Positions 1,797 to 63,329 of a stretch of DNA of 64,000 nt are shown in pieces. The notes under the pieces were generated by a model, which saw only the letters and a list, made by a program, of their open reading frames with translations, had not been told where the DNA came from and made no database searches. Position 1 is the stretch's first letter, and the number at the start of each line of letters is the position of its first letter. Made by a program: the position numbers and the translations under genes. Source of the DNA: Verrucomicrobiota bacterium (lineage in GTDB: Bacteria; Verrucomicrobiota; Kiritimatiellia; RFP12; UBA1067); contig JAHFSX010000008.1 in the NCBI GenBank assembly GCA_023269675.1, forward strand, positions 85,999 through 149,998. Direction: 5' to 3'.

Positions 1797-3173
1797 CTAC
1801 TTCCTCTCCGCTCCCGCAGGTACGACCGCGTAGGCGTGCGGCACCGGCTTGCGACTCGCCAGCGCGTCTTTCTCGAAAGCCCCCACCTTTTTGCGGAGTT
1901 CGCCGTATTGGGGCCAGGTCTTGATGTAGTTGAGCGCCATCGCGGCGCTGTACTCCGTCTTGTCCTTAAAGCCGTCGTAGTGCGCCTGCACCGCAGCCGG
2001 GTCCTCCACGTTGATCTTGTAGTGGCTCTGCATCCAGCGCCGCGTGTTCATCAGGCTGCACGCCTGAGCCTCAGCGTTCCGACGCTGCTCGTTGAGTTGA
2101 GCAACGCGGCGCGCCTGCTTGGCCTGCGGCGTCGCGGCGTTGGATGCGAGGTTGACGCCCTTCGCCAGTTCGTCCGCCGCATACCGTCCCACAAAACCGC
2201 CGTCGATCTTCAGCTCATACGCTCCTGCCGCAAGGCCGGTCACCGACAGCAGTTCCTGGTTCAGGTCCTTCTCGATCGGCAGCAGTTCCAGCATCGGCTT
2301 GGCCGCCGGATCGACCGGAAAAGGCAGGGCCTTCTCCAGCACCGTGAAGGCCACGCCGCCGTCCTTCCTGGCGACGGACGCCACCTCCGCGTTGACGCTC
2401 TCCGCCGCGCGGCCCGCGGCCGCGTCCACCGTAACCTTCGAGACCAGCGACGGCGCGCCCTGCGTCTTCAGGAACAGCCACGTCATCATCAGGTACCCCG
2501 GCGCGCCCGGATGCACGCGGTCGCCGCCCACGATGGTCCACTTCGGGTCTTTTTTCTGCTGTTCCAGATTGAGAGCCGTCATCGGCCCGTGGAAATCCAC
2601 CACGGTCCCGTTGTTCTTCGCCGCCAGCTCCCGCACGATCGCCGCACATTTCCCGAGGCCCTCGTTGCATCCCGGCTGGTTATTGTTCTTTTCAAGCACC
2701 ACAGTCTGGTCAAACGGCGACGGCGTGAGGAAGAACAGCTTCGGCTCTCCCGCCTCGGCGCGGATGCGGCCGACAACCTTCTCCATGTTTCCCCGGTACC
2801 CGTCGAGCGCCTGCTTCTGCCCCCTGATCTGGTCTGCGGTTGGCGCTGCCACATAATAGCCGCGCCCGACATCGTTCATGCCGAACATGATGGCCACCGA
2901 GGTCGGCTTCTGATCGATCACGTCTTCCTGCAGCCGGCCGAGCGAACCTCCGGCCGAATCGCCCGAGCGGCCCGCGTTCGCGAACCGGATCGTCCGCTCT
3001 GGAAAACGGGTCAGGTAATAGTCCGCGAGCATCGTCTGGCAACGCCCGCCGGCCGAGATGCTGTCCCCCAGGAAACACACGGTCTCGCCGTCCTTGAACA
3101 CCTCGCCGCGCGCGGCGCTTCCGACCGTCATGACGCCTAACAGCAAAACGGCAACTGTAACCAATCTGTGCAT
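1797..3173 (-). CDS. SGNH/GDSL-family hydrolase (second copy) with signal peptide
   Basis: 458-aa ORF; MHRLVTVAVLLLGVMTVGSA signal; motifs CFLGDSISAGG, GMNDV, DRVHPG. Confidence 0.8.
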   Translation of the reverse strand: MHRLVTVAVLLLGVMTVGSAARGEVFKDGETVCFLGDSISAGGRCQTMLADYYLTRFPERTIRFANAGRSGDSAGGSLGRLQEDVIDQKPTSVAIMFGMNDVGRGYYVAAPTADQIRGQKQALDGYRGNMEKVVGRIRAEAGEPKLFFLTPSPFDQTVVLEKNNNQPGCNEGLGKCAAIVRELAAKNNGTVVDFHGPMTALNLEQQKKDPKWTIVGGDRVHPGAPGYLMMTWLFLKTQGAPSLVSKVTVDAAAGRAAESVNAEVASVARKDGGVAFTVLEKALPFPVDPAAKPMLELLPIEKDLNQELLSVTGLAAGAYELKIDGGFVGRYAADELAKGVNLASNAATPQAKQARRVAQLNEQRRNAEAQACSLMNTRRWMQSHYKINVEDPAAVQAHYDGFKDKTEYSAAMALNYIKTWPQYGELRKKVGAFEKDALASRKPVPHAYAVVPAGAERK

Positions 3174-3289
3174 CGCATTCCCCCTTATTGATTTGAAGCA
3201 ACCCGTTCGGCACAGCCGCGGCCTCCGTGCTCACGGAAGACGCGGCTCGCCATCAACACGCACTCCTTGCCGGCTTCACGCGAACCGTC

Positions 3290-6200
3290 CTACTGGACCA
3301 GTATCAGCGTGCCCGTGGGCCGGACACGCACATAGACGGTGCCGTTGTCAGCATAGGCGCTCATGTAAAGCCGGCCGGCATATTTCGACTCACCTGAAAC
3401 CCAAAGCTTCAGATTTTCCGCCCCGGAGATCGTATCGTAAGTGAAGATCGCGGTGCAGCCGACAACCGGCGTCACGCCCGGCCACTCGATCAGACCCGCG
3501 CCCCCGACGGTCAGCTTGCCGTTCACGTCGACCGTATGGTCTGGGCTCACCCGAACGGTGACGCCGCCGGCGAGGGCGAGGTCGCCGTTGACCGTCAGCG
3601 TTCCGGCGTCCGGATCAGACAGGTCGACGAGGCCGGTGACCGACAGCGAACCGCCGCTGACCGTGCCGCCGCCCACGAGCGCGCGCGTGTTCTGGGTGAA
3701 ACCGCCCAACTCCAGCGTGGCGCCGACCGCGACGCGCACCGTGTCGGCCGACGCGCCGGACAAGGGCATGTAGAGCAGATTGGTCGCTGCGCGGCCGAAC
3801 CACTTCCAGCCGAGATAGGCTTCGACCGCGAGGCGCTCGTCATCGGAGATCGAACGGTTGAAGATCAGCAGCTCGGCCAGGCGTTGGCCGCCGTTCCGGC
3901 TCCCAATGGTGGTGGGACGGTCAGCGGCGAGCGTGTCGACGCGGGCGTTGCCGGTGGTGTGGTTTTCGATGATCTGGTAGGCCCCGTTCAGCACGTTGGA
4001 GGCCACGGTGGGGTTGGGCAACAGAGCCCCGTCGATGTAGGTCCGGCCACCAATGACTTGGCCGACCGCGTTGAACCCGTACAGCCGGTTCTCGGTGGTG
4101 ATCGGTTCGAGGTTGCCGTTGACGCGGGGGCCCCGGTGCCAGTCGGAGATTTGCTGGTCACTGACGATGTTCGTGTTGCCGAGCAGGAAGCCGCCGCCGT
4201 TCTGGCTGCCCAGCACCCAGAAGACAGAGCGCGCGTCGGGGATCTGACGGTCGAGCATCATGTAGGGGCTGGTGCCGTAGGTGCCGAAGTCGACCGTGCG
4301 CCGGCCGCCGAGCGCCGCGTCGACGTAGTTCGAAGGGGCCAGTCCCGGCGCGTAGGCGTAGCGTCCATTACCCCGAGGGTCACGCCATTCCGTCACCTTC
4401 CCGGCTCCGTCCATGGTCAGGGTGTTGGTGCGTGCGGCGTCGAGGTTGATCACCAGTTGATTGGTCACGGGCGTGTTAAGGCCAAGGGTTCCTGCGGTGT
4501 AGCGCAGGGTGCCCTGCCGAACATTCAGCGTGCCGTTGAACCCGACCGTGCTGCCAGCGATGTCCAGCGTGCCAGTGCCGCTCTTGACCAAGCTGCCGGA
4601 ACCTGCGAGCCAGCCGACGCTGTTGGTCTGTCCGGCGGCGAGTTCAAACGCGGTCGTCGCGGCGAGTGTCAGGCCGGGAAGGGTCGGCGCGCCAGGCGCG
4701 GTGTAGCCGTGGACGGCCCGGTTGAACCACTTGGCCGACAGATAGGCCTCTACGGTCTTGCGGTCCGCATCGGCCAGCGGCTTGTCGTAGACGATCACTT
4801 CGGCCAGACGCTGGCCGCCTGTGTTGCCGCCCGCGCCGTTGTGGGCGAAGCCATCGACCGAAATGTCGCCGCCAGTCAGGAACGAGACGAGCTGGTAGCC
4901 GCCGCTCAGGCCCTGCACGTTCGGGAAGACGGGCAGGCCGTCGATCCACGCGAAGCTGCGGCTGAGCCACATCCGCTCCCGCTCATTGTACGAATTGTCG
5001 GAGGTATAGGCATCGAACAGAGGCGAGGACGCGTTGTTATAGGTGCGGGAAAAGAGCGAGTTGTTAACGCTGGAGCCGAGCAGGTAGCCGCCGCCGTTCT
5101 GGCTGCCCAAGACCATGAAGACCGTGCGGATGCCGCCGGTCGGCGCGGTCCAGACCAGGTAGCGTCCGCTTCCCGCGACATCAAAGTCCACGACCGGCAG
5201 CGCGTTCAGCGCGCTGTTGACCAGCAGGGGTGCTTTGCTCAGCCCGTTGGTGGCGGCTCGCGACGGATTCGAGGCGTCTTCCCAACGGGTGACCTTCAGC
5301 GTGGCGGCATCGATCGTCATCGTGTTGGTGCGTGATGCGTCGAACCAAGCCGCGTATCCCGCCAACGGCTGGGTGGGCGCAGCGCCCAAGGATTTGAGCA
5401 CAAAGGCGCCGCCGTCGCCGCCGAGCGAACCGGTAAAGGAGGCCAACCCGTTGAGGGTCACCTTGCCGGGGCCGGTCTTGGTCACGGTTCCCGTTCCCGT
5501 GAGCGTGTCGAGCGCCAGATCGTTTTCAGCCCTCAGCCCGACATTTCCCGCCACCTCCAGTGTTGCCAATGCGGGCCGGGCAGGCATCCACTTGGCCCGT
5601 AGCGCGGCCTCGGTGTCCAGCCGCTCCTGTTCGGTCAGGGTGCGGGTGTAGAGGATCAATTCCGCCAGACGCATGCCGCCACTGCGATCATACATGGCGC
5701 GGTCCTGTCCGATCCGGCTCGCGGCGAAGTTGGAGCAGCGGGCGGAGATGATTTGGTACCCGCCCGACATCGGCGTCGCCAGGGTGTCGCACAGGCGCCC
5801 GTCCACCCAGGTGGTCATGCTGTTCGCGCACAAGCCGGCCTCCACCTTGATCCAATCGGGTGACCGGTAGGGAGACCCGCCGCGGTGGAAGTTCGGGGCG
5901 ATGTCCGGCTCGCACAGCAGGAAGCCGCCGTTGTTCTGGCTGCCATACACCCAGAACACGGTCAAGATGCCTGTGATCCGCTGGCTCCAGTCCAGGAACT
6001 GGCGAGAGTATTGCGAGCCGAAGTCCACGACCGGCAACCCGTTCATCGCGTTCCGGATCAGAGCCGGCGGCCGCGCGTTGACGTTGGTGATCATGGCGCT
6101 GATCGTCTTGCCGTCCGCATCGCTCCAGGCGTACACGCGGTCATTGGTGAGTGTCAGGGTGTTCAAAGCCGAGGCATCCAGATGAAAAGCCGGCGAAGCG

Positions 6201-7714
6201 GCGACCTGACCCGAACCGGTGCTTGAGGCCGCGTTCGTCAAGGCGAGCGTGCCTTCGGTTAGTCGAAGGGTTCCGGGGTAAGAACTGCTCTCCTCCAGGC
6301 GCAGCGTGCCCGCGCCGGTCTTGGTCAGTTTGCCCCTGCCCTGCAACTTGCGCACCGTGGTGTCGCTGTCCGTGGACGCCGTCTGCAGGGTCGCATCGGT
6401 CACGACCTGGACATGGCGGAGGTCCGAGGTTTTGGCGAGCCACTTGTCGTACAGGTAATGCTCGACCTGCCGGCGCTCGGAGTCGGAGAGCATCCGGTCA
6501 TAGATGATCAGCTCGGCCAGGCGCTGGCCGCCGCTGCGTCCCGCCCCGAAACTGCGGTCGAAAGCCAGTCCGTCGGCGGTAAGGCCCGAGGATTGCACAA
6601 TGCTCACGAGATCATAGCCGCCTGAAAGTCCGGTGCCCCAGCCGTTCACGCTCTGACCGTTCAGGTAGGAGGTTGAGAGTCCGCTGTCATATCCCCAGAT
6701 CGGGTCATCCGCCAGCGCGCCGAGGCTTCCGCCGCGGTGGAAGTTCGCCACGCTCCTGCCGCCGAGCAAGAACCCGCCGCCGTACTGACTTCCAATGACC
6801 CAGAAGACCGAGCGGACGGTCGAAAGCGTGGCTGCCCAGGTCATGTATCGGCCGGAACCGAAGGTGCCGAAATCCACGGCAGGCATAACGCCGAGTTCGT
6901 TGTCGAGGCGCAGGGGGCAGTTGTTGGTGGCGGCAGCTCGCGCGTGATAGCCGTTGCCCGAGAGGTCGCGCCACTCTAAGACCTGGATACCGTTCGTGAA
7001 GGTGAACGAATCCGTCCTGCTCGCATCAAGCCGCAGGAGGGGAGATGCCACAAGAAGCGGCGGATAGTTGGTGTCTGCGAGCGCGGCGGGCAGGGTCTTG
7101 ACCGTGCGGAGCGTTCCGTTTCCGATGTACCAAGAGCCACCCGCGAAGGAGGCGGGGTTTGTCACCGTCAGCGTGCCGCCGGCCGCGCTGCTAAAGCCGG
7201 AGAAGCCTACCCCCTGCAGGTTGGGCAAGGTGCTTTGACCGCCCGGGAAGTCGAAGAACAGGCCGCCCGGATTCCGGATGATCGTCGTGCCGGAAAACCG
7301 GTTGGTGTTCTGGATCATGAACATGCCGTTTACGAGGAGGTTGGACTCGACCGTTAGCCGGGACTTGAGGTAGAACTGCGTCGTCGAGTCGGATTTCAGC
7401 TCGGCGGGTGAACCGTGTAAGAGAAACTCGCCGCTCTTGAAAGTCACCTGACTGTTATATTGGTTCTTGTTATCGATTTTCCCCAGCAGCCAAGGCGAAT
7501 CCTGCTCAGCCAGATTCACGGTGAACGCGAAGTTCGTGGCGAAGATCGTGACCTTGGCGTTCTCACCGCTGGCGGGAACGCCGTTTGTCCACTGGGTCGA
7601 ATCCGTCCAAATGACATTGTTGCTGACCGCCTTTAGGAATCCGTCCCCGGCCGACAGCCAGAACGGAACACAACACGCCGCGGTCCAACCCCACGCTCTC
7701 ATCCAGTTTCTCAT
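3290..7714 (-). CDS. Giant secreted protein (1474 aa) with four repeated LamG/concanavalin-like lectin modules
   Basis: Four ~330-aa repeats each containing DFG..GSGRY..W....RSVFWV.GSQ.GGGFLLG and GGQRLAEL(I/L)IY(D/N)R.LSD.ER..VE.YL..KW (Laminin_G_3-type jelly-roll signature); N-terminal signal peptide; C-terminus TGTLILVQ. Confidence 0.85.
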   Translation of the reverse strand: MRNWMRAWGWTAACCVPFWLSAGDGFLKAVSNNVIWTDSTQWTNGVPASGENAKVTIFATNFAFTVNLAEQDSPWLLGKIDNKNQYNSQVTFKSGEFLLHGSPAELKSDSTTQFYLKSRLTVESNLLVNGMFMIQNTNRFSGTTIIRNPGGLFFDFPGGQSTLPNLQGVGFSGFSSAAGGTLTVTNPASFAGGSWYIGNGTLRTVKTLPAALADTNYPPLLVASPLLRLDASRTDSFTFTNGIQVLEWRDLSGNGYHARAAATNNCPLRLDNELGVMPAVDFGTFGSGRYMTWAATLSTVRSVFWVIGSQYGGGFLLGGRSVANFHRGGSLGALADDPIWGYDSGLSTSYLNGQSVNGWGTGLSGGYDLVSIVQSSGLTADGLAFDRSFGAGRSGGQRLAELIIYDRMLSDSERRQVEHYLYDKWLAKTSDLRHVQVVTDATLQTASTDSDTTVRKLQGRGKLTKTGAGTLRLEESSSYPGTLRLTEGTLALTNAASSTGSGQVAASPAFHLDASALNTLTLTNDRVYAWSDADGKTISAMITNVNARPPALIRNAMNGLPVVDFGSQYSRQFLDWSQRITGILTVFWVYGSQNNGGFLLCEPDIAPNFHRGGSPYRSPDWIKVEAGLCANSMTTWVDGRLCDTLATPMSGGYQIISARCSNFAASRIGQDRAMYDRSGGMRLAELILYTRTLTEQERLDTEAALRAKWMPARPALATLEVAGNVGLRAENDLALDTLTGTGTVTKTGPGKVTLNGLASFTGSLGGDGGAFVLKSLGAAPTQPLAGYAAWFDASRTNTMTIDAATLKVTRWEDASNPSRAATNGLSKAPLLVNSALNALPVVDFDVAGSGRYLVWTAPTGGIRTVFMVLGSQNGGGYLLGSSVNNSLFSRTYNNASSPLFDAYTSDNSYNERERMWLSRSFAWIDGLPVFPNVQGLSGGYQLVSFLTGGDISVDGFAHNGAGGNTGGQRLAEVIVYDKPLADADRKTVEAYLSAKWFNRAVHGYTAPGAPTLPGLTLAATTAFELAAGQTNSVGWLAGSGSLVKSGTGTLDIAGSTVGFNGTLNVRQGTLRYTAGTLGLNTPVTNQLVINLDAARTNTLTMDGAGKVTEWRDPRGNGRYAYAPGLAPSNYVDAALGGRRTVDFGTYGTSPYMMLDRQIPDARSVFWVLGSQNGGGFLLGNTNIVSDQQISDWHRGPRVNGNLEPITTENRLYGFNAVGQVIGGRTYIDGALLPNPTVASNVLNGAYQIIENHTTGNARVDTLAADRPTTIGSRNGGQRLAELLIFNRSISDDERLAVEAYLGWKWFGRAATNLLYMPLSGASADTVRVAVGATLELGGFTQNTRALVGGGTVSGGSLSVTGLVDLSDPDAGTLTVNGDLALAGGVTVRVSPDHTVDVNGKLTVGGAGLIEWPGVTPVVGCTAIFTYDTISGAENLKLWVSGESKYAGRLYMSAYADNGTVYVRVRPTGTLILVQ

Positions 7715-12661: not shown

Positions 12662-15600
12662 TTACATGACCGAGATCAGCGTGCCGGGCGTCGCGTAATA
12701 CAGCACCACACTGTTCGGATGGTAGCCCACGTGCCAATTCTCCGGCAGCCCGGCGACCGGCGCAAAGCTCCCGCTGCGCGCGCCGGTCCACGTGACGAGC
12801 GTGTAGGTCTGGCCGCGCACCAGCGTCCCGGCCGACACCGCGAGCCGCGCGCCCGTCCCCAGCGTCAGGTTGCCGGTCACCGCGAGCGTCCCCGTGCCGC
12901 CCGTGCCGGCGGTCACCGTCAGCGTGTTGGTGAGCGTGACGTCGCTCTGCACGACGAGCTGGCCCTCCCGCACCGCGGTGGGCCCGGTGTTGCTGACCAC
13001 GCCCGTCAGGTAGACCGTGCCGACGCCCGTCTTGGCGATCCCGCCCGGCCCCGTGATCTTGCCCGAGAAGGTCACCCCGTTCGCGTCGGTGTTAGCCGAG
13101 GTCAGGATCACGTCGCGCGTCAAAACCAAGGCGTTGGTGAACGCCGAAGCGCCCGCGACCTGGCCTCCGCCCAGCGTGACCGTTCCTCCGGAGTCGGCCA
13201 GGACCATCGCGTTACCGACCGTGTAAGGGCCATCCGTCAGCAGGGCCACATCCCCCGCGCCCGTGCTGGCATCGCCAAGCAACACCGACGCCTTGCCTAG
13301 CGCGCCAGCAGCGCCATTCCCGGACGAATTCGCTCCGACCAAGACCTTGCCTCGACGGATCGTGACGTCACCCGTCATGGCGTTGGTCGTGCCCGAGATG
13401 CGCCACGTGTTGGACCCGACTTTGGTATAGCGGAACGGGAAGGCGCTGTTGCCGATGCTGTTGTACGTGCCCCACAGATAGCCGGAGTATTCGAACGTCT
13501 CGTCGGCATCGCGTCCGACCAGCAGCGGCGGCTGCGCCTGGTTGTCCGGGCATTTGCCGCCGAACGAGCCCGAGCCGGTCAAACGGCCCAGCGCGATCGC
13601 ATAGGGGAAGGTGACCCAGCCGAAGTCGACCGCCGCGCCGTCCGGCACCGCGAACTCGCCGGCCGGGAGACCGCCCCCGACGTTCCGGGTGTAATATCTG
13701 GCGCCGTCGAAGACGCCCGTGAAGTGGTTGAAGTGCGCCCCGTTGAACGAGACCGTCGCCGCGGTCGCCGAACTGTTGGTGATGGTCAGGCGCCCCGGCC
13801 CGGAGATGAAGTCGCAGGAATAGGTCTCATCCCCTTTGACGCCCATATTGACGGACACCCCGTCCAAATCGACGATGCCGCCCGTCGCCTCGACGCGCAC
13901 GTGGTAGCCGCCCTGCTCGTCTTCCGAACTTCCGCCGCCGTTGGTCGCGCCGTTGCCGGAAAGGAACAAGGCGCCGCGCAGAACGGCATTGTTCCTGACG
14001 ATCACGGTCCCCAGCTTCTCGCCCGAAATCACCCGCGGGCCGGCCCCGTTCTTGCTGATGTCCAGCGTCCCCTCCTCCACCGCGAAGGTTTTGGACAGAT
14101 CGTCCAAGAAATTTTCATTGGCCATCATGGACCAGTTGCCGGCGATGGTCAGCATCCCTTTGCCGGTCTTGGTCAGCAGGCCGTGCGCCTGCGCCCCGGT
14201 GCGCCCAATGAAGATGGTGCGGTCACTGGCGTCCGGCACGTCGATCCTGCCGCCCGCCTCGTTGAAGAACAGGCTGTTCGCCCCCGCAACGCCAAAACTT
14301 TGCTGGCCTCGCAGACGCAGGGTCGCCCCGTTGTAGACATACACGGACCGGTTGGTCGCGCCGAACGCCTGCCCGCTCTCGATCTCCAGCGTCCCGCCAA
14401 TCACATAAATCGTGCCGGAGAACGTGTTCCGGACATCTGAAAGGATGAGCGTTCCCGGCCCGGTCTTGGTCAAAGTCAGCGCGCCTCCGGCCGGCGTGTT
14501 GGTCAGGACCGAGCTGATACGCAGCACCGCCTGGGTGTTGTACTGGTGCACGGTCAGCTCGCTGCCCTGCGCGGAGGTCAACGTGCCGCCCTGGATGTGA
14601 ACCGCGTTCGCGCCCATCGCCGCCGTCACCAGAATCGCGCCGTTCGTCAGGCCGGTGTCGCCCTGCAGCGTCAGCTGCCCGGCGGCGGGGTCGTTGAAGC
14701 GCAGCGTGCGGATCCGGGCGTCCGCCGGCACCGAGGCGGGCGTGAGCGCCGTCACATCCATGTGCCGGGGAGTCACGTTGTCCCAGTCCGTTGCGGCCGA
14801 CGCGTAGGGGATCGCCGTGCCGTCTGCGCTTCGCGCGACAAAAGCCCCGCCGCCATACGTGATGCGGGTGTTCAGCATGCCCGCGTCGACGCCGGAGCGA
14901 GACAGCCTCAACGTGGTGCCCTCCTGGACACGCAGGTCGAGCGATTCGCCCGCTCCCACGGCGCACGCCGCGGCGCCTTCCGGATCGAAGCGCGTCCCCG
15001 CGGCCCCGCTGAGGCTGACCACGCCCGCGCACCCGGCGGCCGGATTCAGACTGTGGATGGTGTTGGTGAACGGCTGCGCCCCGCCGATGATGTTCAACCT
15101 TGCGTCGTTGTAGAGGTTCACGTACCACGCGACGGGCAGTTTGGCCTCGCTGTTCCCCGTGTAATCCAGATTGACCGCCCCAGAACAGATGTGCAGGTTC
15201 TGGTGCTGTCCTGCGCGGGTCAGGGTCAGCGTACCGAGCCCCGACTTATAAACTTGGCCGCTGAAAGGACCGAGCACACCATTGAAGGTCACGTTCTGGT
15301 CCGCCGTGCGCAGCCGGACGTCGGCCCTGTTGGTCAGTACAAGACCCGCCGAGGTGATGTCCCACGGCGTCTCGAAGAGGAACGCGCCGCCCCCGAAGAT
15401 CAGCGGGCCCGCGCCAAGGTTCTCCCTGCAGGTCGCGCTCAGATAACCGTTCGAGATGATCGTGCCGCCGCTGTAGGTGTTCGTGCCGCGCAGGAACAGC
15501 GCATTCAGCGAGTTCTTGATCAGCGTTCGGCCCGCGCCCTGCTCGCCGATCGCCCCTGTGAGCGCGATGGCGCTGCCCACGGCACGCGGATAAGAGCCCA

Positions 15601-20625: not shown

Positions 20626-21603
20626 ATGCCTGATTCCGCCACGCCGCTGCTCGAAATTCACGGGCTCAAGACCTGGTACCCGATCAAAAAAGGTGTTCTC
20701 GCCCGCACCGTCGGCTTCGTGCGCGCGGTGGACGGCGTGGACCTGACCTTGAACCGCGGCGAGACCCTCGGCATCGTGGGCGAATCGGGCTGCGGCAAGT
20801 CGACCCTCGCCCGCACGATCCTGCGCCTTGAGAAGGCCCGCGAGGGGACGGTCACGCTCGGCGGCCGGAACGTCCTGGCCCTGCGCGGGGCGGGCCTGCG
20901 CGCCTTCAGGCGGAAGGTGCAGGTGGTCTTCCAGGACCCCCACGCCTCGCTCAACCCGCGCCACACCGTGCTCGACCTGCTCACCGAAGCCATGCTCGTC
21001 CACGGCCTCGTCACGCGCGAGGGCCGCCGCGATGCGGCCGTGCGCCTGCTGTCCGACGTGGGCCTGCCGCCCGACGTGCTCGACCGCTATCCCCACGCCT
21101 TTTCGGGCGGCCAGCGCCAGCGCATCTGCATCGCCCGCGCCCTGGCCCTCGGGCCGGAGCTGCTCATCTGTGACGAGGCCGTCAGCGCGCTGGACCTCTC
21201 GGTGCGCGCGCAGGTGCTGAACCTGCTGCAGGACCTCAAGGCGAAGCACGGGCTCTCCTACCTCTTCATCACCCACGACATCGGCGTGGTGCAGCACATC
21301 TCCGACCGCATCGCCGTCATGTACCTCGGAAAGATCGTCGAGACCGGCCCGACCGACGACGTGCTGGGCAAACCCGCCCACCCCTACACGCGCCTGCTGA
21401 TGCGGGCGGTGCCCCGCATCGGCACCCCCCTGCCGGAAAACGATGCCGCGGCCGCGGAAGCGACCCCCGCCCCCGATCCCGCCGGGTGCGCCTTTGCCCC
21501 GCGCTGCCCGCTGGCCGACGCGGCCTGCAGGCGCGCGTCACCCGCGCTCGAAGCGCACGGCGCAGGCGCCGCGCGGCGCTGCGCCTGCTTCAAGGCCGGC
21601 TAG
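20626..21603 (+). CDS. ABC transporter ATP-binding protein, oligopeptide/dipeptide (OppF/DppF) type; no cognate permease or binding-protein genes nearby
   Basis: Walker A GESGCGKST, signature LSGGQRQRICIARAL, Walker B LLICDEAVSALD, plus Opp/Dpp C-terminal extension (GKPAHPYTRLLM). Confidence 0.9.
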   Translation: MPDSATPLLEIHGLKTWYPIKKGVLARTVGFVRAVDGVDLTLNRGETLGIVGESGCGKSTLARTILRLEKAREGTVTLGGRNVLALRGAGLRAFRRKVQVVFQDPHASLNPRHTVLDLLTEAMLVHGLVTREGRRDAAVRLLSDVGLPPDVLDRYPHAFSGGQRQRICIARALALGPELLICDEAVSALDLSVRAQVLNLLQDLKAKHGLSYLFITHDIGVVQHISDRIAVMYLGKIVETGPTDDVLGKPAHPYTRLLMRAVPRIGTPLPENDAAAAEATPAPDPAGCAFAPRCPLADAACRRASPALEAHGAGAARRCACFKAG

Positions 21604-21801
21604 AGCATTTCCACTTTTAGTGTGGCCACTTTGTGTAAGCGGTTAAAACCTGCCTCCCATTTGATTCATCTTACCACCAAGACTCGAAGAACACGGAGTC
21701 CACCAAGAATAAACTTTGTGTTCTTGGTGGACTTTGTGTCTTGGTGGTGAGATGTTTTCTGGACACAAAACGGCTACACCGTTAATTAAAATGCTCTAGC
21801 C
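21598..21801. repeat. 204-bp AT-rich nested palindromic element between convergent genes; candidate bidirectional terminator or MITE
   Basis: Perfect 13-bp terminal inverted repeats GGCTAGAGCATTT (21598-21610 vs 21789-21801), each containing the TAG stop of the flanking gene; inner IRs accaccaagac/gtcttggtggt (21673-21683 / 21738-21748) and gtccaccaagaa/ttcttggtggac (21698-21709 / 21721-21732, 11-nt loop). Confidence 0.6.
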
Positions 21802-23169: not shown

Positions 23170-23221
23170 AAGTTGAAAATAACACAGCGCCCGCTCACTG
23201 GCAAGCGCCGGCGGGCGGCTA

Positions 23222-23340
23222 TCTAATTATGGCCGATACCGCCTGAAGGCGGGACTACAAACGCTCCATAAACATGCGGTGTTCCGTTTGTAGTACCGGC
23301 TTTAGCCGGAGTCTTTGCATGCCTGACGGCCATAATTAGA
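23222..23340. repeat. REP-like intergenic element with 14-bp TIRs and internal hairpins
   Basis: TIRs TCTAATTATGGCCG (23222-23235) / rc at 23327-23340; hairpin ccgcctgaaggcgg (23239-23252); ctacaaacg/cgtttgtag IR; cgtttgtagtaccggctttagccgg matches the family core seen at 30867-31078 and 41811-41880. Confidence 0.55.
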
Positions 23341-23358
23341 ACTGCTCTCCCACGGAGG

Positions 23359-29769: not shown

Positions 29770-30750
29770 TCAGATATGCGGCTCGTGGCCATAATTCAGG
29801 CTGCATTGTTTGATCAGGCAGGTCTCGGCCTCGTGCGCTTCCAGCTGGATGGTCGCATGTTCGATCTGGAAACGGCCGTGCAGCTCCTCGCGGATGCGCG
29901 CCAGCAGGGCGTTGTTCAGGTCGGTCTGCGACAGCACCACGTGGGCGGTCATCGCCGCCGCGGACGTGCTGAGCCCCCAGATGTGGACGTGATGCACGTC
30001 CTTCACCCCCGGCAGGCCCTGCAGATAGGCGCGCACCGCATCCGCGTCGATGTTCGTCGGCACCGCGTCCATGGCCAGGCTGACCGAGTCGCGCAGCAGC
30101 GACCACGTCCCGACGAGGATGATCGCGGCGATGGCCAGGCTGACCATCGGGTCAATCACCGTGCGGCCGGTCCAGGCGATCAGCACGCCGGCCACCACCA
30201 CGCCGGCGGAGATGGCGGCGTCCGCCAGCATGTGCAGGAACGCGCTGCGGATGTTCAGGTCCTCCCGGCGTCCCCGCAGGAACAGCAGCGCCGTGGCCGT
30301 GTTGATGACGATGCCGACCGCCGCCACCGCGATCATGGTCCCGGATTGCACCGGCGCGGGCGTCCGGAGACGCCCGATGGCCTCCCAGGAGATCGCCCCG
30401 ATGCTCACCAGCAGAAACAGCGCGTTCAAAAGCGCCGCGAGCACCGACGATTTCCGGAAGCCGAAGGTGAAGCGCTGCGTCGGCTGCCACTGCGACAGAT
30501 AGAGCGCTCCCCAGGCCACGACCAGCCCCATGACGTCGCCCAGGTTGTGGCCGGCGTCCGTCAGCAGCGCAAGCGAGTCCGCATAAAAGCCGAAGACCGC
30601 CTCGACCACGACAAAGGCGACGTTCAGCGCGATGCCGACCGCAAAGGCCCGCCCGAAATCGTGCGGGTGGTGGCAGTGGTCATGTCCGTGGTGGTGATCG
30701 TGATGTGTCATGCGCGCGTGTCCCGTTCCGTAGCCGGTAGTCGCGCCCAT
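29770..30750 (-). CDS. czcD: Cation diffusion facilitator (CDF) family divalent-metal efflux transporter, CzcD/ZitB-like
   Basis: 326 aa; His-rich N-terminus HHDHHHGHDHCHHPHD; TM motifs ..HNLGDVMGL.. and HMLADAAIS; C-terminal cytoplasmic domain. Confidence 0.85.
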   Translation of the reverse strand: MGATTGYGTGHARMTHHDHHHGHDHCHHPHDFGRAFAVGIALNVAFVVVEAVFGFYADSLALLTDAGHNLGDVMGLVVAWGALYLSQWQPTQRFTFGFRKSSVLAALLNALFLLVSIGAISWEAIGRLRTPAPVQSGTMIAVAAVGIVINTATALLFLRGRREDLNIRSAFLHMLADAAISAGVVVAGVLIAWTGRTVIDPMVSLAIAAIILVGTWSLLRDSVSLAMDAVPTNIDADAVRAYLQGLPGVKDVHHVHIWGLSTSAAAMTAHVVLSQTDLNNALLARIREELHGRFQIEHATIQLEAHEAETCLIKQCSLNYGHEPHI

Positions 30751-30866
30751 CGTACCACGCGGGTTCGTCGCCTTTCAAACGAAAAGGCCGGAAGCCCGCA
30801 GTCCCGCAGCCCGGGGCGCATCCGCGATGAGGTGCCTTTGTGTAACACGGCGTCGGCGGCTGCCCG

Positions 30867-31078
30867 GGGCCGGCACAAGCCGGTACAACATGCGGGCAAG
30901 GGCGCTGGCGTCATTTAAGATGGTTCACGGCGCTCTGGGCCGGCACAAGCCGGTACAACATGCGGGCAACGACGCCTGCGTCATTTAAGATGTGTCATGG
31001 TGCTCTGGGCCGGCTAAAGCCGGTACTACATACGGGACTCGGGCATGTTGTACCGGCTTTAGCCGGCCCCGGTCATGG
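30867..31078. repeat. BIME/REP-like cluster: 3 x 70-bp tandem units, each carrying a gccggcNNaagccggtac hairpin; the third unit closes into a 20-bp perfect palindrome
   Basis: Units begin at 30867, 30937 and 31007 (gggccggcacaagccggtacaacatgcgggcaa...); third unit ggccggctaaagccggtaca (31008-31027) pairs with tgtaccggctttagccggcc (31049-31068), 21-nt loop. Confidence 0.65.
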
Positions 31079-31134
31079 AGCGCGAGTCCCCGGCGCCGGT
31101 GGCGTACACCGGTTCGCCGAAGGCGCGCGGCCCG

Positions 31135-31770
31135 CTAGCGTTGGAGACGGAGCCCCGCCATGGCCGAGAGGATGACGCGGGTGGCCGAGCGCAGCAGAAG
31201 AACCACGAGACAAGACGCGACCAGGATATCGGGCCAGCCCGCTCCGGTCAGCCAAACCGCGCCCGCCGCGACAACGACCGACAGGTTGGTGGCGATGTCG
31301 TTGCGCGAGCACTCCCACACCGAGCTCATGTTGACGTCCTCGTGGCGGTGGCGCCACAGCAGAAACAGGCAGAACAGGTTGGCGGCCAGGCTCATCAGGC
31401 TGAACGCGCCCATGACTTCGAAGACCGGCACGGTCGGGGTCATCAGCTTTGAAACGATTTGCGCGGCGACGCCGCAGGCCGCCAGAAAAATGAGCGCGCC
31501 CTTAAACAAAGCGACCCTGGCCTTGGTGGCGGCGCCTCTGGAAACCGCATACAGGCTCAGCCCGTAGGTCAGGGCGTCGCCCAGGTCGTCGAGGCTGTCG
31601 GAGAGCAGCGCCGTGGAGCGGCCGTAAAACGCGGCGGCGACCACCACCAGGAACATCACCGCGTTCACGCCGAGGACGGCCCACAGCGTTCCACGCTGAC
31701 GGCCCTGAAGCTCTGCACACGTATCGTCACAGCAACATCCACTCATCAGGAAGCCTCCCTCTCTTATCAT
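31135..31770 (-). CDS. Short CDF-like cation transporter (membrane domain only) with Cys-rich N-terminus CCCDDTC
   Basis: 211 aa; TM helices with CDF motif LSDSLDDLGDALTYGLSL; start ATG overlaps the stop of the upstream gene as ATGA; alternative start M9 at 31746. Confidence 0.7.
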   Translation of the reverse strand: MIREGGFLMSGCCCDDTCAELQGRQRGTLWAVLGVNAVMFLVVVAAAFYGRSTALLSDSLDDLGDALTYGLSLYAVSRGAATKARVALFKGALIFLAACGVAAQIVSKLMTPTVPVFEVMGAFSLMSLAANLFCLFLLWRHRHEDVNMSSVWECSRNDIATNLSVVVAAGAVWLTGAGWPDILVASCLVVLLLRSATRVILSAMAGLRLQR

Positions 31771-34598
31771 CCTTGCGGTGCCGGCGACGGTACGGTCACG
31801 ATCGCCTCATCATACCCGCCGGTGAACGGCGCGTTGCAGTCGATCCACGCGGCCAGCGCGTGCCAGTCGGCCTCCGGCAACGCGACGCGGTTGTGGCCGG
31901 CCTTGAGCATCTTCATCAGCGGGCTCACGGCCGAACCGGTCGCGTACGGCGCCAGCGGCAGCTTCTCGCCCGCGTAGCCGGTGACCGCGACATACCGCAC
32001 CTGCGGCAGCAGCGCCAGAAACGAATCGCTCACGCAGTGCTGGGGCCCCTCGTCCTTGTCCCCCTTGTGCGGCGCCGCGACAAGCCGCAGGCCGCGCAGG
32101 TCAAAGGCCTTCTTCCCGCCCTTGGAGCCGTCGTGGCACGCGACGCAGTGGCGATCGAGGACCGGCTGCACCACCCGGACAAAGCTCATGGGCCCGGCGC
32201 CGAACGGCGCGGGCCGGATCGTCTCGGGCTTCTTCGCGAAGGCCTGCCGGTTGCCGGAGGGCGCGGCCGCGCCGGGCCGCTCGTGGCACCCCACGCACCC
32301 CTGGGACTCGCCGGGCTTAAGGCCGACGTAGTTGCGCATGCGGCGGACCTCCAGGAGGTCCGCGTCCAGCGCCTCCAGGAACAACATGCGGTCCGGCGGC
32401 ACCTCGAAATAAGCGGAGCCGTCCGCGGCCACCGGCACCACGCCCAGCACGCCGCGCGCGTCCCAGCCGCAGCCCGCGCCGAGGTCCGAACGGTGGGGAT
32501 CGGTGTGGCGCCGCTTCGGATAGCTCTCGCACACGCGCAGCCACTTGACGGTGCCGCGCGGCACCCCCTCGAGCCCGATGTTCACATCCTGCACGTAGAG
32601 CGTGCCGGGCGTGCCGGGCGGCGCTTCGGGCTGCGCCGAGATGACGACCGGCAGCGGGCGCGGCTTCAGAGGAACCGGCGCGTAGCAGGAGCCCTGGTCC
32701 ATGCGGTAAATCAGCTCGCAGTTGCCGTGGCGGTCCAGCAGGTAGATCCCGTAGGCGTCCGCGCTGTCGCGCGCCTCGAGCGAATGGCTCACGAGGAAGA
32801 GCCGGTCGGACAGGGGCCAGGGCGAAGCATACCATCCCCGCGCCGTCACCGGATGGTCCAAAGCGTCCGGCACGTTCTTGTCCGCCCGTTCATCCAGCAG
32901 CGCGTGCATCTCCGGATAGCGGATCTCGGGCGTGATGTTCTGGAAGCCCGACGGCCCCCCGCGGTTCTGATTCAGATCGGCGATGACGACCGGGCCCGCG
33001 CCGGTGTTGTGGTGCGCGGCGCCCACGGCGACGATCTTGCGCGTGCCCGGGATCTGGCGCGCCTCCTGCAGGGCGATGGGGCCGCGCGAAAAGCTGTACC
33101 AGTCGCCGTAGGCCAGCTGCGCGCGGGTGCCGTCGGGATTCACCACCCACGGCATCTGGATCACGTTGTAGGCCTTCATCACGTAGTCCCAGCGGGTATA
33201 GAGGATGCGGCCGTCGTCCAGCATGGCGGGGTAGAACTCGGTGTCCTGCGGCTGGGTGATCGCCCGCACGCCCGAGCCGTCGGCGGCGCAGGTGAAGAGG
33301 CCGAAGACCAGCGCCCAGTCGCCGCACTGCACCAGGCGGTTGTCGCGCGACGAGGTGAAGCAGACGCGGCCGTCCGGCAGCCAGCACGGCTCCGTGTCCT
33401 CCGCGTCCTCCCGCTCCGTGAGGTTGCGCAGACCGCTGCCGTCCGTGTTGACGGTGTAGATGTCGTACATGTGGCAGGCCCCGCCGCGATAGGCGGAACT
33501 GTCGGCCGGGCGGGCCGGGTCATAGGCGGCGTGTCCCGCGGCCCAGCGGTAGGGCGTCGGCGGGTCTCGCGGGCGGGCGAGCGGGAAGACGACGCGCCGT
33601 CCGTCAAACGACAGGTCGGCCCGCCCCACGCCGCAGCGCGCCGCGAGCTCCGGCGGCAGCAGCCCGCGCACGGCGCCGTCCGGGCGCAGCCCCGTCAGGA
33701 CGCAGAGGTCCGCGCCGGGCGTCTGGTGCTCGCCCATGCGGTGGGCGCACTGGTGGCCGCCGCCGGGCCAGCGGCGCTTCACGAAAAGCAGCTCGTCGAA
33801 ATCGAGCGCCGGATCGGCGAAAAGCGCCGCGCGGACGGCCTGCCGGGCCGCGTGGTAGGCGGACAGCCGCCCGTCCGTGGTCTGGCTGAGTCCGGCGGCC
33901 GCCACGTAGGCCGTCAGTTCCGGGTCATCGGGGCCGGCGGGCGCGCGGTCCGCCCAGATCTCGATGGCCGAGACGACGGCGTTGTGGCCCTCGAGGATGG
34001 CGATCCGCACCTGCAGCGTGCCGTTGGTCACCAGCCCCGGCGGCAACTCCCAGACCCCTTCCGCATCCGCATTGGCCCGGACCGCCACCTCGCCCAGGAC
34101 GCGGCCGTTGGCCGTCACCCGCTCGCGGCGGTCGTGGTCCGAAAAGAAGCCGCACCGCAAGCGGAACGCGGCGGCGTCAGGCAGCCGGACGGCCGTGTAG
34201 ACCACCTCGCGCTCATGCCATTTCATGGCACGCCCTTGAAAGGCGTAATCCTTGCCCGGGGCAAAGCCGGCCGCGTCCGGCGCGCACGCCGAGGCGCGCA
34301 GCAGGTAGCGGCCCTCCCGCATCGCCGCCGTCGTCGCGGGCGCGGCCGCGGCCGCGAAATCCCGCTCCGCCCGCGCGAGCTCGCCCAGCAGCGCCTCGGC
34401 CTCGGCCGTCCGGCCGCACTGGCGCAGGTCCCCGGCCAGCAGGCGCCCTTTGCGCAGCGTTTCGGCGAAGGCCGGCGCGCCTCCGGATGCGCGTCCGAAG
34501 GCCGCCTCCTGGCGCGACCAGTCGTGTGTGACCGCATCGGCCCACACGGCCGCGACGCCCCCCGCGACCGCCGCGATCATGCTTGCGAGACGAACCAT
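31767..34598 (-). CDS. PD40/TolB-like beta-propeller protein with C-terminal di-haem c-type cytochrome motifs (hydrazine-synthase-alpha-like architecture)
   Basis: 943 aa; signal MVRLASMIAAVAGGVAAVWADA; PD40-like repeats (YDIYTVNTDGSGLRNLT...DTEPCWLPDGRVCFTSSRDN); two CxxCH haem sites CVGCHE and CVACHD. Confidence 0.75.
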   Translation of the reverse strand: MVRLASMIAAVAGGVAAVWADAVTHDWSRQEAAFGRASGGAPAFAETLRKGRLLAGDLRQCGRTAEAEALLGELARAERDFAAAAAPATTAAMREGRYLLRASACAPDAAGFAPGKDYAFQGRAMKWHEREVVYTAVRLPDAAAFRLRCGFFSDHDRRERVTANGRVLGEVAVRANADAEGVWELPPGLVTNGTLQVRIAILEGHNAVVSAIEIWADRAPAGPDDPELTAYVAAAGLSQTTDGRLSAYHAARQAVRAALFADPALDFDELLFVKRRWPGGGHQCAHRMGEHQTPGADLCVLTGLRPDGAVRGLLPPELAARCGVGRADLSFDGRRVVFPLARPRDPPTPYRWAAGHAAYDPARPADSSAYRGGACHMYDIYTVNTDGSGLRNLTEREDAEDTEPCWLPDGRVCFTSSRDNRLVQCGDWALVFGLFTCAADGSGVRAITQPQDTEFYPAMLDDGRILYTRWDYVMKAYNVIQMPWVVNPDGTRAQLAYGDWYSFSRGPIALQEARQIPGTRKIVAVGAAHHNTGAGPVVIADLNQNRGGPSGFQNITPEIRYPEMHALLDERADKNVPDALDHPVTARGWYASPWPLSDRLFLVSHSLEARDSADAYGIYLLDRHGNCELIYRMDQGSCYAPVPLKPRPLPVVISAQPEAPPGTPGTLYVQDVNIGLEGVPRGTVKWLRVCESYPKRRHTDPHRSDLGAGCGWDARGVLGVVPVAADGSAYFEVPPDRMLFLEALDADLLEVRRMRNYVGLKPGESQGCVGCHERPGAAAPSGNRQAFAKKPETIRPAPFGAGPMSFVRVVQPVLDRHCVACHDGSKGGKKAFDLRGLRLVAAPHKGDKDEGPQHCVSDSFLALLPQVRYVAVTGYAGEKLPLAPYATGSAVSPLMKMLKAGHNRVALPEADWHALAAWIDCNAPFTGGYDEAIVTVPSPAPQG

Positions 34599-34667: not shown

Positions 34668-34933
34668 GGGCGCATCCCCGTTTCATTGACTAACGTGGGC
34701 AAAGCCCGCAACCCAATTGAACCGCAGATGGCCGAATACTGAACCGCAGATTGTCGAAGTTAAGCTTCCTCTACGCAATTGAAGCTCTTTCCTTCATGAT
34801 TCGCCAATCGTCATTCGTCAATCTGCGGTTTGTTCAGGTACAAAACAACGTGGTTTTTATTGTCGGTTTCGAGCCGTAAGGCGCTACCCGCACAGGTTAT
34901 CCCCCGACAAGGCAGTGAAACGGGGATGCGCCC
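34668..34933 (+). mobile_element. MITE-like element, copy 1 (266 bp), with 18-bp hairpin-forming terminal inverted repeats; ~93% identical over ~215 bp to the inverted copy at 61463-61785
   Basis: TIRs GGGCGCATCCCCGTTTCA (34668-34685) and TGAAACGGGGATGCGCCC (34916-34933); internal aaccgcagat x2 direct + atctgcggtt inverted; ~45% GC; sits 191 bp upstream of the MFS transporter ATG; contains spurious ORF MFRYKTTWFLLSVSS. Confidence 0.7.
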
Positions 34934-41810: not shown

Positions 41811-41880
41811 CGTATGTTGTACCGCCTTCAGGCGGATGCTTGCGCACATGCGTTGCCGGCTGAAGCCGGTACAACATACG
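41811..41880. repeat. REP-like element (same family as 23222-23340 and 30867-31078) in the 5' region of the GH42-like gene
   Basis: 13-bp perfect IR cgtatgttgtacc (41811-41823) / ggtacaacatacg (41868-41880); hairpin ccgccttcaggcgg (41823-41836; its rc ccgcctgaaggcgg is at 23239-23252); core gccggctgaagccggtacaacatacg (41855-41880). Confidence 0.6.
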
Positions 41881-61347: not shown

Positions 61348-61462
61348 GACTTCCGCTCCGTTTTGCGCCTCATTCTTTCGACCGTCACCACGGTCCCAAG
61401 ACAAGACGTATTGCGACATAGAATAGTGCTTACGTGGCCTTTTTTCAACACCGATGCTAAAC

Positions 61463-61785
61463 GGGCGCATCCCCGTTTCACTCACTACCCGCGCCCGGCG
61501 GTCGCGGGCCACCTTGCGCGGCACCTCTTTCAAGGGTGGTGCGCGACCTTGTCTCTCGGGCGCGGTTAGTGCCTTACGGCTCGACACCGACAATAAAAAA
61601 CACGTTGTTTTGTACCTGAACAAACCGCAGATTGACGAATGACGATTTGCGAATCATGAAGGAACGAGCTTCAATTGCGTGGAGGCAGCTCTACTTCGAC
61701 AATCTGTGGTTCAGTATTCGGCCATCTGCGGTTCAATTGGGTTGCGGGCTTTGCCCACGTTAGTCAATGAAACGGGGATGCGCCC
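61463..61785 (-). mobile_element. MITE-like element, copy 2 (323 bp, inverted relative to copy 1), same hairpin TIRs
   Basis: TIRs GGGCGCATCCCCGTTTCA (61463-61480) and TGAAACGGGGATGCGCCC (61768-61785); rc of 61565-61785 aligns at ~93% to 34668-34885; extra ~57 bp of divergent sequence next to the gene-proximal TIR; 115 bp upstream of the isomerase start. Confidence 0.7.
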
Positions 61786-61871
61786 GTTTGCGACGTGCGC
61801 GTAACCGGCGTCCCGCAAAATGAAAGGCACGCCGCGAAAAAAGTTCACACGCGCCGCCGGCACAGCCCGCC

Positions 61872-63329
61872 TCAATGATTCGCGGGCATGATCGAGAGCA
61901 GGCGCTTGTCCGTGATGAACGCCGGCGCGTCATAGACGGGCATGTCTTTGAAGGTGACCTTGCCCTCTGCGACCAGCACCTTCTCTTTGGGAATCTCATA
62001 GATCCCGCCCGTGATCGCATCCACCCAGACAGGCTCATTGAAGTCGCCTTTCGTGATGGTGAAGGTCGCGCTCACCGTGTCGTTGTGGTTCGACGGCACC
62101 ACGCTCCTGTCCCAGAACACGCACACCTGCTGACCGCTCTTGATGTCCTTGTGCCCGTAGACCGCCAGCGGACGGGCGCACTGCACCTCGCAAGGATAGT
62201 CCGGGATCAGTTCCAGGGCGTCGTTGAAGACCGAGACCACGTTCTGCACCGCGTAGTAGGCCATCTTCACTTTCAGGACCTTGTAGCCTTCCGCCGCCCC
62301 CGCCGTCTTGATCAGGCCGTAGCGCACCAGGCCGTTGTGGAACGAGGTCGTGCGGTAATCGAGATCGGCCGCCGTGAAAACCTCCGAGTCGGCGCCGTTC
62401 CCGATGTCGCCCAGCATGCGGCGCGTGTCCCACTTCGCCTGGGTCAGCTCGGTCCACGGATACTTGCTCAAAGCCCCGGAGGGGCACCATTCCGACTGCG
62501 TGCCGCACTCTCCCTGCCACAGCTTCAGGTTCGGCGCGTACTTGGAAACGATCTCCTTGGCTTTCAAGGCCGAGGCGTTATGGTCGTCCGGGTTCCGCGC
62601 GTACGCGTGGTAAACGACCCAGTGGAAAAGGTCCGGCTTGTTGCGCTCGGACAGCGTCTTGACAAAGTGTTCGACGTAATTGGTTTTCGGGGAACAGATC
62701 ACCAGCCCGCCGATGCGCGCGTCAGGAATCACGCGCTTGATGATCTCGGCCGTGCGGATGTCAAACTCGGTGACGCGCTCGGGCGTGTGCTCCTTGTGGC
62801 CGTCGGGCTCGTTCCACATGCTCCAGTCGCGGACCTTGCCCTTGTAGCGCTCCGCCATCTTTTCCACCCAGGTGTCCCACGCCTTCAGGCCCTCTTCGGA
62901 CTTCGGGAAGCCGCCCGACAGCGTGCGTCCGCCGCCGCCCGGATAGGCCGGGTTGCCGTAGCTGGTCTCCAGCCAGATCTCCATCCCGCGCGAGCGCGCG
63001 TCGTCGATGATGTGGTCCAGCCAGGCGAAATCATAGATGCCGGGGTCCTTCTCGGTCCGCGCCCAGCCGCCCTGCAGCCGGATGCGCTTGATCCCCAGCG
63101 CGGGCAGATATTCCTTGAACGCATCGTAGTCCGCGTACTCGCGGTCGATCGTCTCGCACCCGAGCGTCCAGCGCGACGAGCCGATCTCACTCACGCCCTT
63201 CGGCGCGAGGGTCCCGATGCGTTTCATCCCCGGGTCGAGCGTCGTCTGCACCCGCGTGTCCGTGTTGTCGATCACCTGGGCCGAAACCGCCGCCGCCCAT
63301 CCGAGAGCTACCGCCAGATATGCTTTCAT
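61872..63329 (-). CDS. Clan GH-A glycoside hydrolase (GH5/GH39-like)
   Basis: 485 aa; signal MKAYLAVALGWAAAVSAQ; acid/base motif WSMWNEPDGH; nucleophile motif LWQGECG. Confidence 0.7.
   Translation of the reverse strand: MKAYLAVALGWAAAVSAQVIDNTDTRVQTTLDPGMKRIGTLAPKGVSEIGSSRWTLGCETIDREYADYDAFKEYLPALGIKRIRLQGGWARTEKDPGIYDFAWLDHIIDDARSRGMEIWLETSYGNPAYPGGGGRTLSGGFPKSEEGLKAWDTWVEKMAERYKGKVRDWSMWNEPDGHKEHTPERVTEFDIRTAEIIKRVIPDARIGGLVICSPKTNYVEHFVKTLSERNKPDLFHWVVYHAYARNPDDHNASALKAKEIVSKYAPNLKLWQGECGTQSEWCPSGALSKYPWTELTQAKWDTRRMLGDIGNGADSEVFTAADLDYRTTSFHNGLVRYGLIKTAGAAEGYKVLKVKMAYYAVQNVVSVFNDALELIPDYPCEVQCARPLAVYGHKDIKSGQQVCVFWDRSVVPSNHNDTVSATFTITKGDFNEPVWVDAITGGIYEIPKEKVLVAEGKVTFKDMPVYDAPAFITDKRLLSIMPANH

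Follow-up and report, generated by a model that had tools for sequence, protein, structure and literature searches.

The window analysed here, a 64-kb stretch of bacterial DNA, carries eight 25-nt units at three intergenic loci. They are very probably GTAG-type REP (repetitive extragenic palindrome) elements that form REPIN-like inverted dimers and, at one locus, a head-to-tail cluster, and that are linked to RAYTs (REP-associated tyrosine transposases). The identification is founded on the anatomy of the units, their excess over chance, a compensated stem, the hairpins of the dimers and a tight association between the unit and RAYT genes in other genomes. A sequence-only reading of this DNA had proposed a REP family, possibly a RAYT substrate, and this proposal is supported by the unit anatomy, the inverted dimers and the units that flank NF047646-matching genes elsewhere.

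Eight REP units in the window

The units were found by a degenerate pattern search. An unfiltered scan of the window with a covariance model, built from 59 training sequences that include the window's own units, returns exactly the same eight at 32–43 bits, with the next best match at 12.8 bits. A pattern made from the 15-nt tail matches the window eight times versus 0.21 expected; seven of these matches lie in units and one, with two mismatches, at 32376, while the unit at 23239 falls outside the pattern. The eight units are as follows.

23239..23263, plus strand: REP unit U1, CCGCC-TGAA-GGCGG-GACTACAAACG, tag GTAG (pattern; covariance model, 43 bits)
23285..23309, minus strand: REP unit U2, tag GTAG (pattern search; covariance model)
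30870..30894, plus strand: REP unit U3, CCGGC-ACAA-GCCGG-TACAACATGCG, opposite-strand tag GTTG (pattern; covariance model, 32 bits)
30940..30964, plus strand: REP unit U4, identical to U3 (pattern search; covariance model)
31010..31034, plus strand: REP unit U5, CCGGC-TAAA-GCCGG-TACTACATACG, tag GTAG (pattern; covariance model, 43 bits)
31042..31066, minus strand: REP unit U6, tag GTTG, inverted partner of U5 (pattern; covariance model, 36 bits)
41811..41835, minus strand: REP unit U7, CCGCC stem, tag GTTG (pattern search; covariance model)
41856..41880, plus strand: REP unit U8, tag GTTG (pattern search; covariance model)

Each unit consists of a hairpin, CCGSC-N4-GSCGG, with a 5-bp G+C stem and a 4-nt loop in all eight, followed by KAC-WAC-AWRCG. 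On the opposite strand it reads CG..T-GTAG-(TA/TC)-hairpin, i.e. a tag, a dinucleotide and a hairpin, which is the classic layout of GTAG-tagged REPs. The tag is GTAG in U1, U2 and U5, and the rarer GTTG in U3, U4, U6, U7 and U8. The stem is either CCGGC/GCCGG or, in two units, the compensated CCGCC/GGCGG. The core GCCGGC-N4-GCCGG, by which the family was originally defined, is present but too narrow, as it misses the two compensated stems. The sequence of U1 is identical to the cross-phylum consensus.

Each of the three loci has a minus-strand gene on either side, as judged from Pfam matches and third-codon-position G+C (GC3), and is thus extragenic, in agreement with its initial description. 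An apparent longer open reading frame that runs through 41811–41880 is an artefact, as indicated by GC3 and by a signal peptide that follows the ATG.

Inverted dimers and a head-to-tail array

U1/U2, U5/U6 and U7/U8 are inverted REP pairs with a short spacer that form a single hairpin, the arrangement known as REPIN. The U1/U2 dimer is tail-to-tail with a 21-nt spacer (ssDNA fold z = −5.7). U5/U6 is also tail-to-tail, with a spacer of 7 nt. U7/U8 is head-to-head with a 20-nt spacer, folds at −28.7 kcal/mol (z = −7.9) and ends 9 nt upstream of a start codon at 41801. The 13-bp inverted repeat noticed earlier at 41811–41880 is exact (41811–41823/41868–41880). The hairpin ccgccttcaggcgg that had been placed at 41823–41836 exists as well, but one base away, at 41822–41835. 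U3 and U4 are singletons inside a head-to-tail array. The features of this array locus are listed below.

30867..31036, plus strand: head-to-tail array, its 70-bp unit made of one REP unit and a 45-nt spacer (TRF and alignment)
31007..31069, no strand: long hairpin of the U5/U6 dimer, 20-bp perfect arms with an imperfect extension (ssDNA fold −30.4 kcal/mol, z = −8.6)
29770..30750, minus strand: flanking gene, CDF cation efflux protein, czcD-like (Pfam Cation_efflux and ZT_dimer)
31135..31770, minus strand: flanking gene, short CDF protein (Pfam Cation_efflux)

The array is located upstream of the czcD-like gene and downstream of the short CDF gene, and Pfam matches bear out the placement between these two genes given in the sequence-only reading. 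Tandem Repeats Finder (TRF) describes 30867–31036 as a repeat of period 70 with 2.4 copies and 88% matches. Units 1 and 2 of the array are both full-length and 86% identical in the alignment; the third shares only its first ~35 nt with them and then continues into the inverted partner. The tandem repeat is therefore genuine, but its copy number is 2.4 and not 3. The perfect 20-bp palindrome ascribed to the third unit is likewise real, with arms at 31007–31026 (GGGCCGGCTAAAGCCGGTAC) and 31050–31069 (GTACCGGCTTTAGCCGGCCC), except that the last base of the left arm had been misquoted. Unusually, GTAG and GTTG tags occur side by side in the window, even inside the U5/U6 dimer.

The suggestion that the locus is a BIME analog does not hold. 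In BIMEs the orientations of the REPs alternate, whereas the 70-bp array reiterates the unit with its flank head to tail: U3, U4 and U5 have one orientation at 70-bp spacing and U6 alone is inverted. A CRISPR array was also considered and rejected, because units 1 and 2 have similar 45-nt spacers and there are only 2.4 copies. Tandem arrays of this REP family are found at other loci, with periods of 57 bp (L204), 74 bp (L198) and 111 bp (L091); arrays resembling the one at 30867 occur both beside RAYT genes and elsewhere.

Each 45-nt spacer contains GTCATTTAAGATG (30909–30921 and 30979–30991, upstream of czcD), a near-palindrome (CATnTTAAnATG) that may represent a duplicated operator or promoter element or be of no significance. 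The czcD side of the locus has a counterpart in a single other public contig encoding an identical CzcD protein (L115, Logan SRR14366756). Compared with window 30751–30896, this contig ends 146 nt upstream of czcD and 2 nt past the first REP unit, as would be expected if the repeat breaks short-read assembly. Annotators should be aware that short-read assemblies can be interrupted at REP repeats in this manner.

Other repeats in the window

Several further repeats are present in the window. Two inverted copies of a ~224-nt element, at 34668–34891 and 61562–61785, are 95% identical, have a lower G+C content and are both intergenic. The element has no relation to the REPs. At 61459–61487/61761–61789 there is an inverted repeat of 29 nt, and Rfam gives no match for the element in 61400–61900. 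A cluster of nested inverted repeats (pairs I8 and I11) and a 17-nt tandem repeat (TRF 21713–21747) occupies 21598–21801, in the intergenic region downstream of ugd, and is also unrelated to the REPs. Finally, four ~81-nt segments spaced ~850–900 bp apart are found at 4182–6845, within the open reading frame 3290–7714, and related segments are found in the neighbouring large reading frames (12900–14500). They represent repeats within the very large secreted or surface proteins encoded there.

A decayed MITE-like shell around the U1/U2 dimer

The third locus was initially described as a 14-bp TIR (23222–23235/23327–23340) enclosing a hairpin. The TIR is exact, and the element can be read further, as a REP dimer in a decayed shell.

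23215..23347, no strand: decayed 133-bp MITE-like shell around the tail-to-tail REP dimer U1/U2 (TIR and consensus match)
Shell members: window 23215–23347, L002, L004, L028, L034, L035, L042, L052 and others
Further shell members: L064, L067, L068, L083, L089, L096, L098

The right end of the shell matches the consensus GGCCATAATGAGAATTGCTG at 17 of 20 positions, and the locus is 93% identical over 114 bp to one in a Lentisphaeraceae MAG (L015). Its left terminus is decayed and no duplication flanks the element (cgccggcgg versus tcccacgga). Elsewhere, the shell family consists of 104–277-bp elements bounded by CAGCAATTCTCATT(A/T)TG... inverted repeats, in Verrucomicrobiota, Kiritimatiellae, Lentisphaerota and Methylococcaceae. 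Flanking 9-bp direct repeats that match at 8 or more of 9 positions accompany 18 of the 29 complete members (13 of them perfectly) and 0 of 29 controls, so the intact shells are true MITEs of a DDE-type transposon. Most shells enclose a REP dimer, head-to-head or tail-to-tail, at varying offsets; some (L002, L012, L058) carry unrelated cargo. This cargo, together with the bare units found at RAYT genes, implies that shell and unit are separable.

Shell and REP are thus distinct from each other, and MITEs can carry REP dimers along as they spread. The copy at 23215–23347 probably arrived in this way, and the 9-bp duplications of its intact relatives point to a DDE-type enzyme, and not a RAYT, for that copy. 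The only TIR-like match in the window is that at 23331–23347, within the element itself, and the loci 30867–31078 and 41811–41880 have neither TIR nor duplication. A search of the fetched loci for an autonomous partner yielded no TIR pair 0.4–4 kb apart with matching flanks, and the plasmid collection contained nothing similar to the shell.

Distribution of the unit among bacteria

A scan of species-representative genomes with the 25-nt pattern gave at least 114 loci, with 125 matches among those listed; related MAGs contributed many matching contigs. The listed matches share far more than the pattern required: 111 of the 125 have a TGAA or TAAA loop. Stem position 4:11, at which the pattern permitted all four combinations, is complementary in 120 of them (65 C:G and 55 G:C). 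Hosts among the listed matches include Verrucomicrobiota, Lentisphaerota, Kiritimatiellae, Acidobacteriota, Anaerolineales and others. Planctomycetota are represented among these matches by, for instance, an 8.3-Mb chromosome and a 6-Mb scaffold, Acidimicrobiia by a 904-kb contig and Methylococcaceae by a 130-kb contig. Four matches, in two Methylobacterium, a Gemmatimonadaceae and a Rugamonas genome (L045, L050, L070, L113), have non-TRAA loops, look like chance occurrences and were set aside. The family had been taken to be lineage-specific; with its unit in at least six phyla, it is not.

In one Lentisphaeraceae MAG, GTTG is the uniform tag (six of six units), which makes it an inherited variant, or a genuine sub-family, and not a product of decay. 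The window's own Ugd is 100% identical to a protein on a 201.5-kb NCBI/ENA contig and 81–85% identical to those of named MAGs, and it places the window in a relative of Kiritimatiellia. Two relatives whose Ugd proteins are 91% and 85% identical to that of the window (L206 and L207) contain no REP unit in 21 kb each, and the genes adjoining their ugd differ from those in the window. This suggests that the family is patchily present among close lineages.

Association of the unit with RAYT genes

In a Verrucomicrobiota MAG (L024), units flank a 218-residue open reading frame at 1033–1689 that scores 81 bits on the NCBIfam model NF047646 'REP-associated tyrosine transposase' (REP_Tyr_transpos; cutoff 80) and 17.3 bits, below cutoff, on Pfam Y1_Tnp. 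At least 1512 proteins are homologous to it; in the 14 that were compared, both the HUH motif LPNHYHxLV and the tyrosine motif NY[IV]HxNPV are conserved, with H87-Y88-H89, Y147 and the Asn-Pro pair invariant in all 14. Judged by the HUH motif, the catalytic tyrosine and the match to a curated model, proteins of this type are identified as RAYTs.

At nine RAYT loci, fetched via an exact protein look-up, units are present on both sides of the gene in seven, on one side in one and on neither side in one. In a further set of 80 RAYT loci from metagenomes, units flank the gene on both sides in 48, lie only upstream in 11 and only downstream in 5, and are absent from 16. Units number 2.56 per kb up to 300 bp from the RAYT gene and 0.19 per kb farther away, a 13-fold difference. 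Stem position 4:11 is C:G in 76 and G:C in 45 of the RAYT-flanking units, and is never unpaired.

The tag is homogeneous at each RAYT locus (GGAG, GTAG or GGTG) and tracks the RAYT clades. The enzymes are on average 68% identical within the GGAG set versus 55% between the GGAG and GTAG sets, and those associated with GGAG and GGTG group more tightly than the GTAG set. This pattern fits co-evolution of enzyme and tag. GTTG adjoins a RAYT gene in one case only (L165).

The 64-kb window contains no RAYT gene that could be detected with a motif regular expression or with tblastn using the L024 protein. The link between unit and RAYT was established in related genomes. For the source genome we infer a cognate RAYT and its action on the copies in the window, the origin of the array, and the genome-wide copy number and present-day mobility of the units.

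The L024 locus has a further peculiarity. The RAYT gene, whose 3′ end overlaps a unit, is located between a membrane-fusion gene and a pump gene. Two REP dimers (units at 3134–3254 and 3464–3572) are inserted in frame within the pump gene itself, which is of the AcrB/CzcA-type RND class (1875–5213; Pfam ACR_tran, 823 bits). The dimers add peptides such as PGFSRK...AFRLKAGL.

Alternative explanations

It is improbable that every copy is a MITE moved by a DDE transposase, with the hairpin units being mere internal sequence. The TIR-bounded elements do usually enclose a dimer of the unit and do carry the 9-bp repeats, and the window copy at 23215–23347 is a decayed member of their family; six of the eight window units, however, lie outside any shell, including all those at 30867–31078 and 41811–41880. 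Furthermore, RAYT genes are flanked by bare units, and some shells move other cargo. The idea that the hairpins are primarily immobile signals of the host, acting in cis as RNA or DNA and selected where they stand (3′-end stabilisers, attenuators or protein-binding sites between co-transcribed genes), is, in our estimate, a shade less probable still. E. coli REPs affect mRNA decay and termination, all three loci are between co-directional genes and the stem is kept via compensatory change. Against this, both orientations of the unit occur within one locus, no unit has the T-tract signature of a terminator, and in many phyla the 25-nt sequence adjoins genes unrelated to one another, with clusters at RAYT genes. 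Signalling roles of this kind would be secondary and compatible with mobility.

A known structured RNA was rejected, as no Rfam family reaches its gathering score anywhere in the window; in 30750–31140, Rfam returns nothing but noise at E values up to 10. A search for tRNA and tmRNA gave none, and a promoter and terminator scan of 30600–31300 placed no terminator-like site at any unit. An origin of the three loci as pieces of a single duplicated segment, or as random matches in G+C-rich DNA, has practically no probability left. They share the core and nothing else, similarity stops at the unit borders where unrelated flanks begin, and the excess of tail matches over the expected number refutes the chance version. 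Several points count against the RAYT-linked REP reading: the window contains no RAYT homologue, GTTG is the tag in five of the eight units, a 5-bp stem is at the short end for REPs, L206 and L207 have no unit in 21 kb each, and the intact relatives of the shell point to a DDE-type enzyme for one locus.

Comparison with known REP systems

The known families most like that of the window are the GTAG REPs, described also in PVC bacteria (e.g. in Opitutus terrae and Rhodopirellula baltica; Di Nocera, De Gregorio & Rocco 2013, PMC3733652), which have the same short G+C hairpin and a terminal GTAG-type tag and are known as head-to-head, tail-to-tail and head-to-tail dimers, tandemly reiterated clusters and intragenic copies. 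The similarity extends to the dinucleotide between tag and stem (GTAG-1/-2), to all three dimer types, to clusters reiterated with their flanking DNA, to intragenic in-frame copies and to the flanking of RAYT genes by units ('REPtrons'). The differences concern sequence. Stem and loop are 5 bp and 4 nt (TRAA) in the window family, but 6–9 bp and 2–3 nt in most families of that study; the peptides of O. terrae GTAG-18/-19 (e.g. VGPALAAG) imply other sequences than those of the window family; GTTG and GGAG are absent from the tag variants reported there; and, unlike those families, the window type is nearly fixed in sequence over many phyla. The unit sequence is absent from the supplements of PMC3733652, and searching the literature for the letters of the unit and of the shell TIR retrieved unrelated human primer sequences only.

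The REPIN/RAYT systems of Pseudomonas and Enterobacteria (Bertels & Rainey 2011, PMC3116915; Nunvar 2010, PMC2817692) display the same inverted pair with a short spacer and one long hairpin. They too are extragenic and tied to a RAYT gene that is itself flanked by REPs. Those families are confined to the genus level, whereas units of the window type are near-identical across phyla. For the E. coli REP/BIME system with TnpA(REP) (PMC3479197) the proposed mechanism is the same, namely recognition of the REP hairpin and GTAG on single-stranded DNA by an HUH/Y1 enzyme. The E. coli REP differs in sequence and length from the window unit, and its BIMEs combine alternating REPs with defined linker motifs, in contrast to the head-to-tail window array with its 45-nt spacer. 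With DDE-type MITEs, the shell at 23215–23347 shares the TIRs, and its intact relatives share the 9-bp target-site duplications as well; unlike such MITEs, the window family has a shell at one of its three loci only, and that copy has lost one terminus and the duplication.

Taken together, the family is of the known GTAG REP/REPIN type. Its phyletic breadth, the co-variation of tag and enzyme and the capture of dimers by MITEs are what make it worth following.

Proposed mechanism and significance

By analogy with REP/RAYT and IS200/IS605 systems, a unit in single-stranded form would fold into its 5-bp G+C hairpin with a 4-nt loop, placing the tetranucleotide tag two bases away. The hairpin would then be bound by an HUH/Y1 RAYT whose gene is at another place in the same genome; guided by the tag, the enzyme would cut the strand and join it again. 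In the course of evolution, this activity may have spread dimers into intergenic DNA. For the 70-bp array, slippage or an unequal exchange between units may have multiplied a unit together with its flank locally.

A broader proposal, to which we give somewhat less than an even chance, is that of a single RAYT/REP module with a near-invariant 5-bp hairpin and a clade-dependent tag (GTAG, GGAG, GGTG or GTTG) in at least six phyla, its dimers captured in several of them as cargo of DDE-type MITEs. In that case, two unrelated transposition chemistries would be spreading one and the same set of REPs, and the natural pairs of tag and enzyme would amount to a readable specificity code for HUH transposases. 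The genome from which the window derives, with its mixed GTAG and GTTG tags, would then host two RAYTs or one of relaxed specificity.

Within the window, three odd intergenic structures are explained as ordinary REP/REPIN DNA, a common form of selfish or domesticated bacterial DNA whose relatives elsewhere surround the gene of a domesticated tyrosine transposase; the number of phyla reached by this family is unusually high. REP families are usually regarded as genus-specific, and the near-identical REP and large RAYT clade described here are found in PVC bacteria, Acidobacteriota, Acidimicrobiia and methanotrophs alike. The co-variation of tag and enzyme provides a natural series for studying how HUH transposases read DNA.
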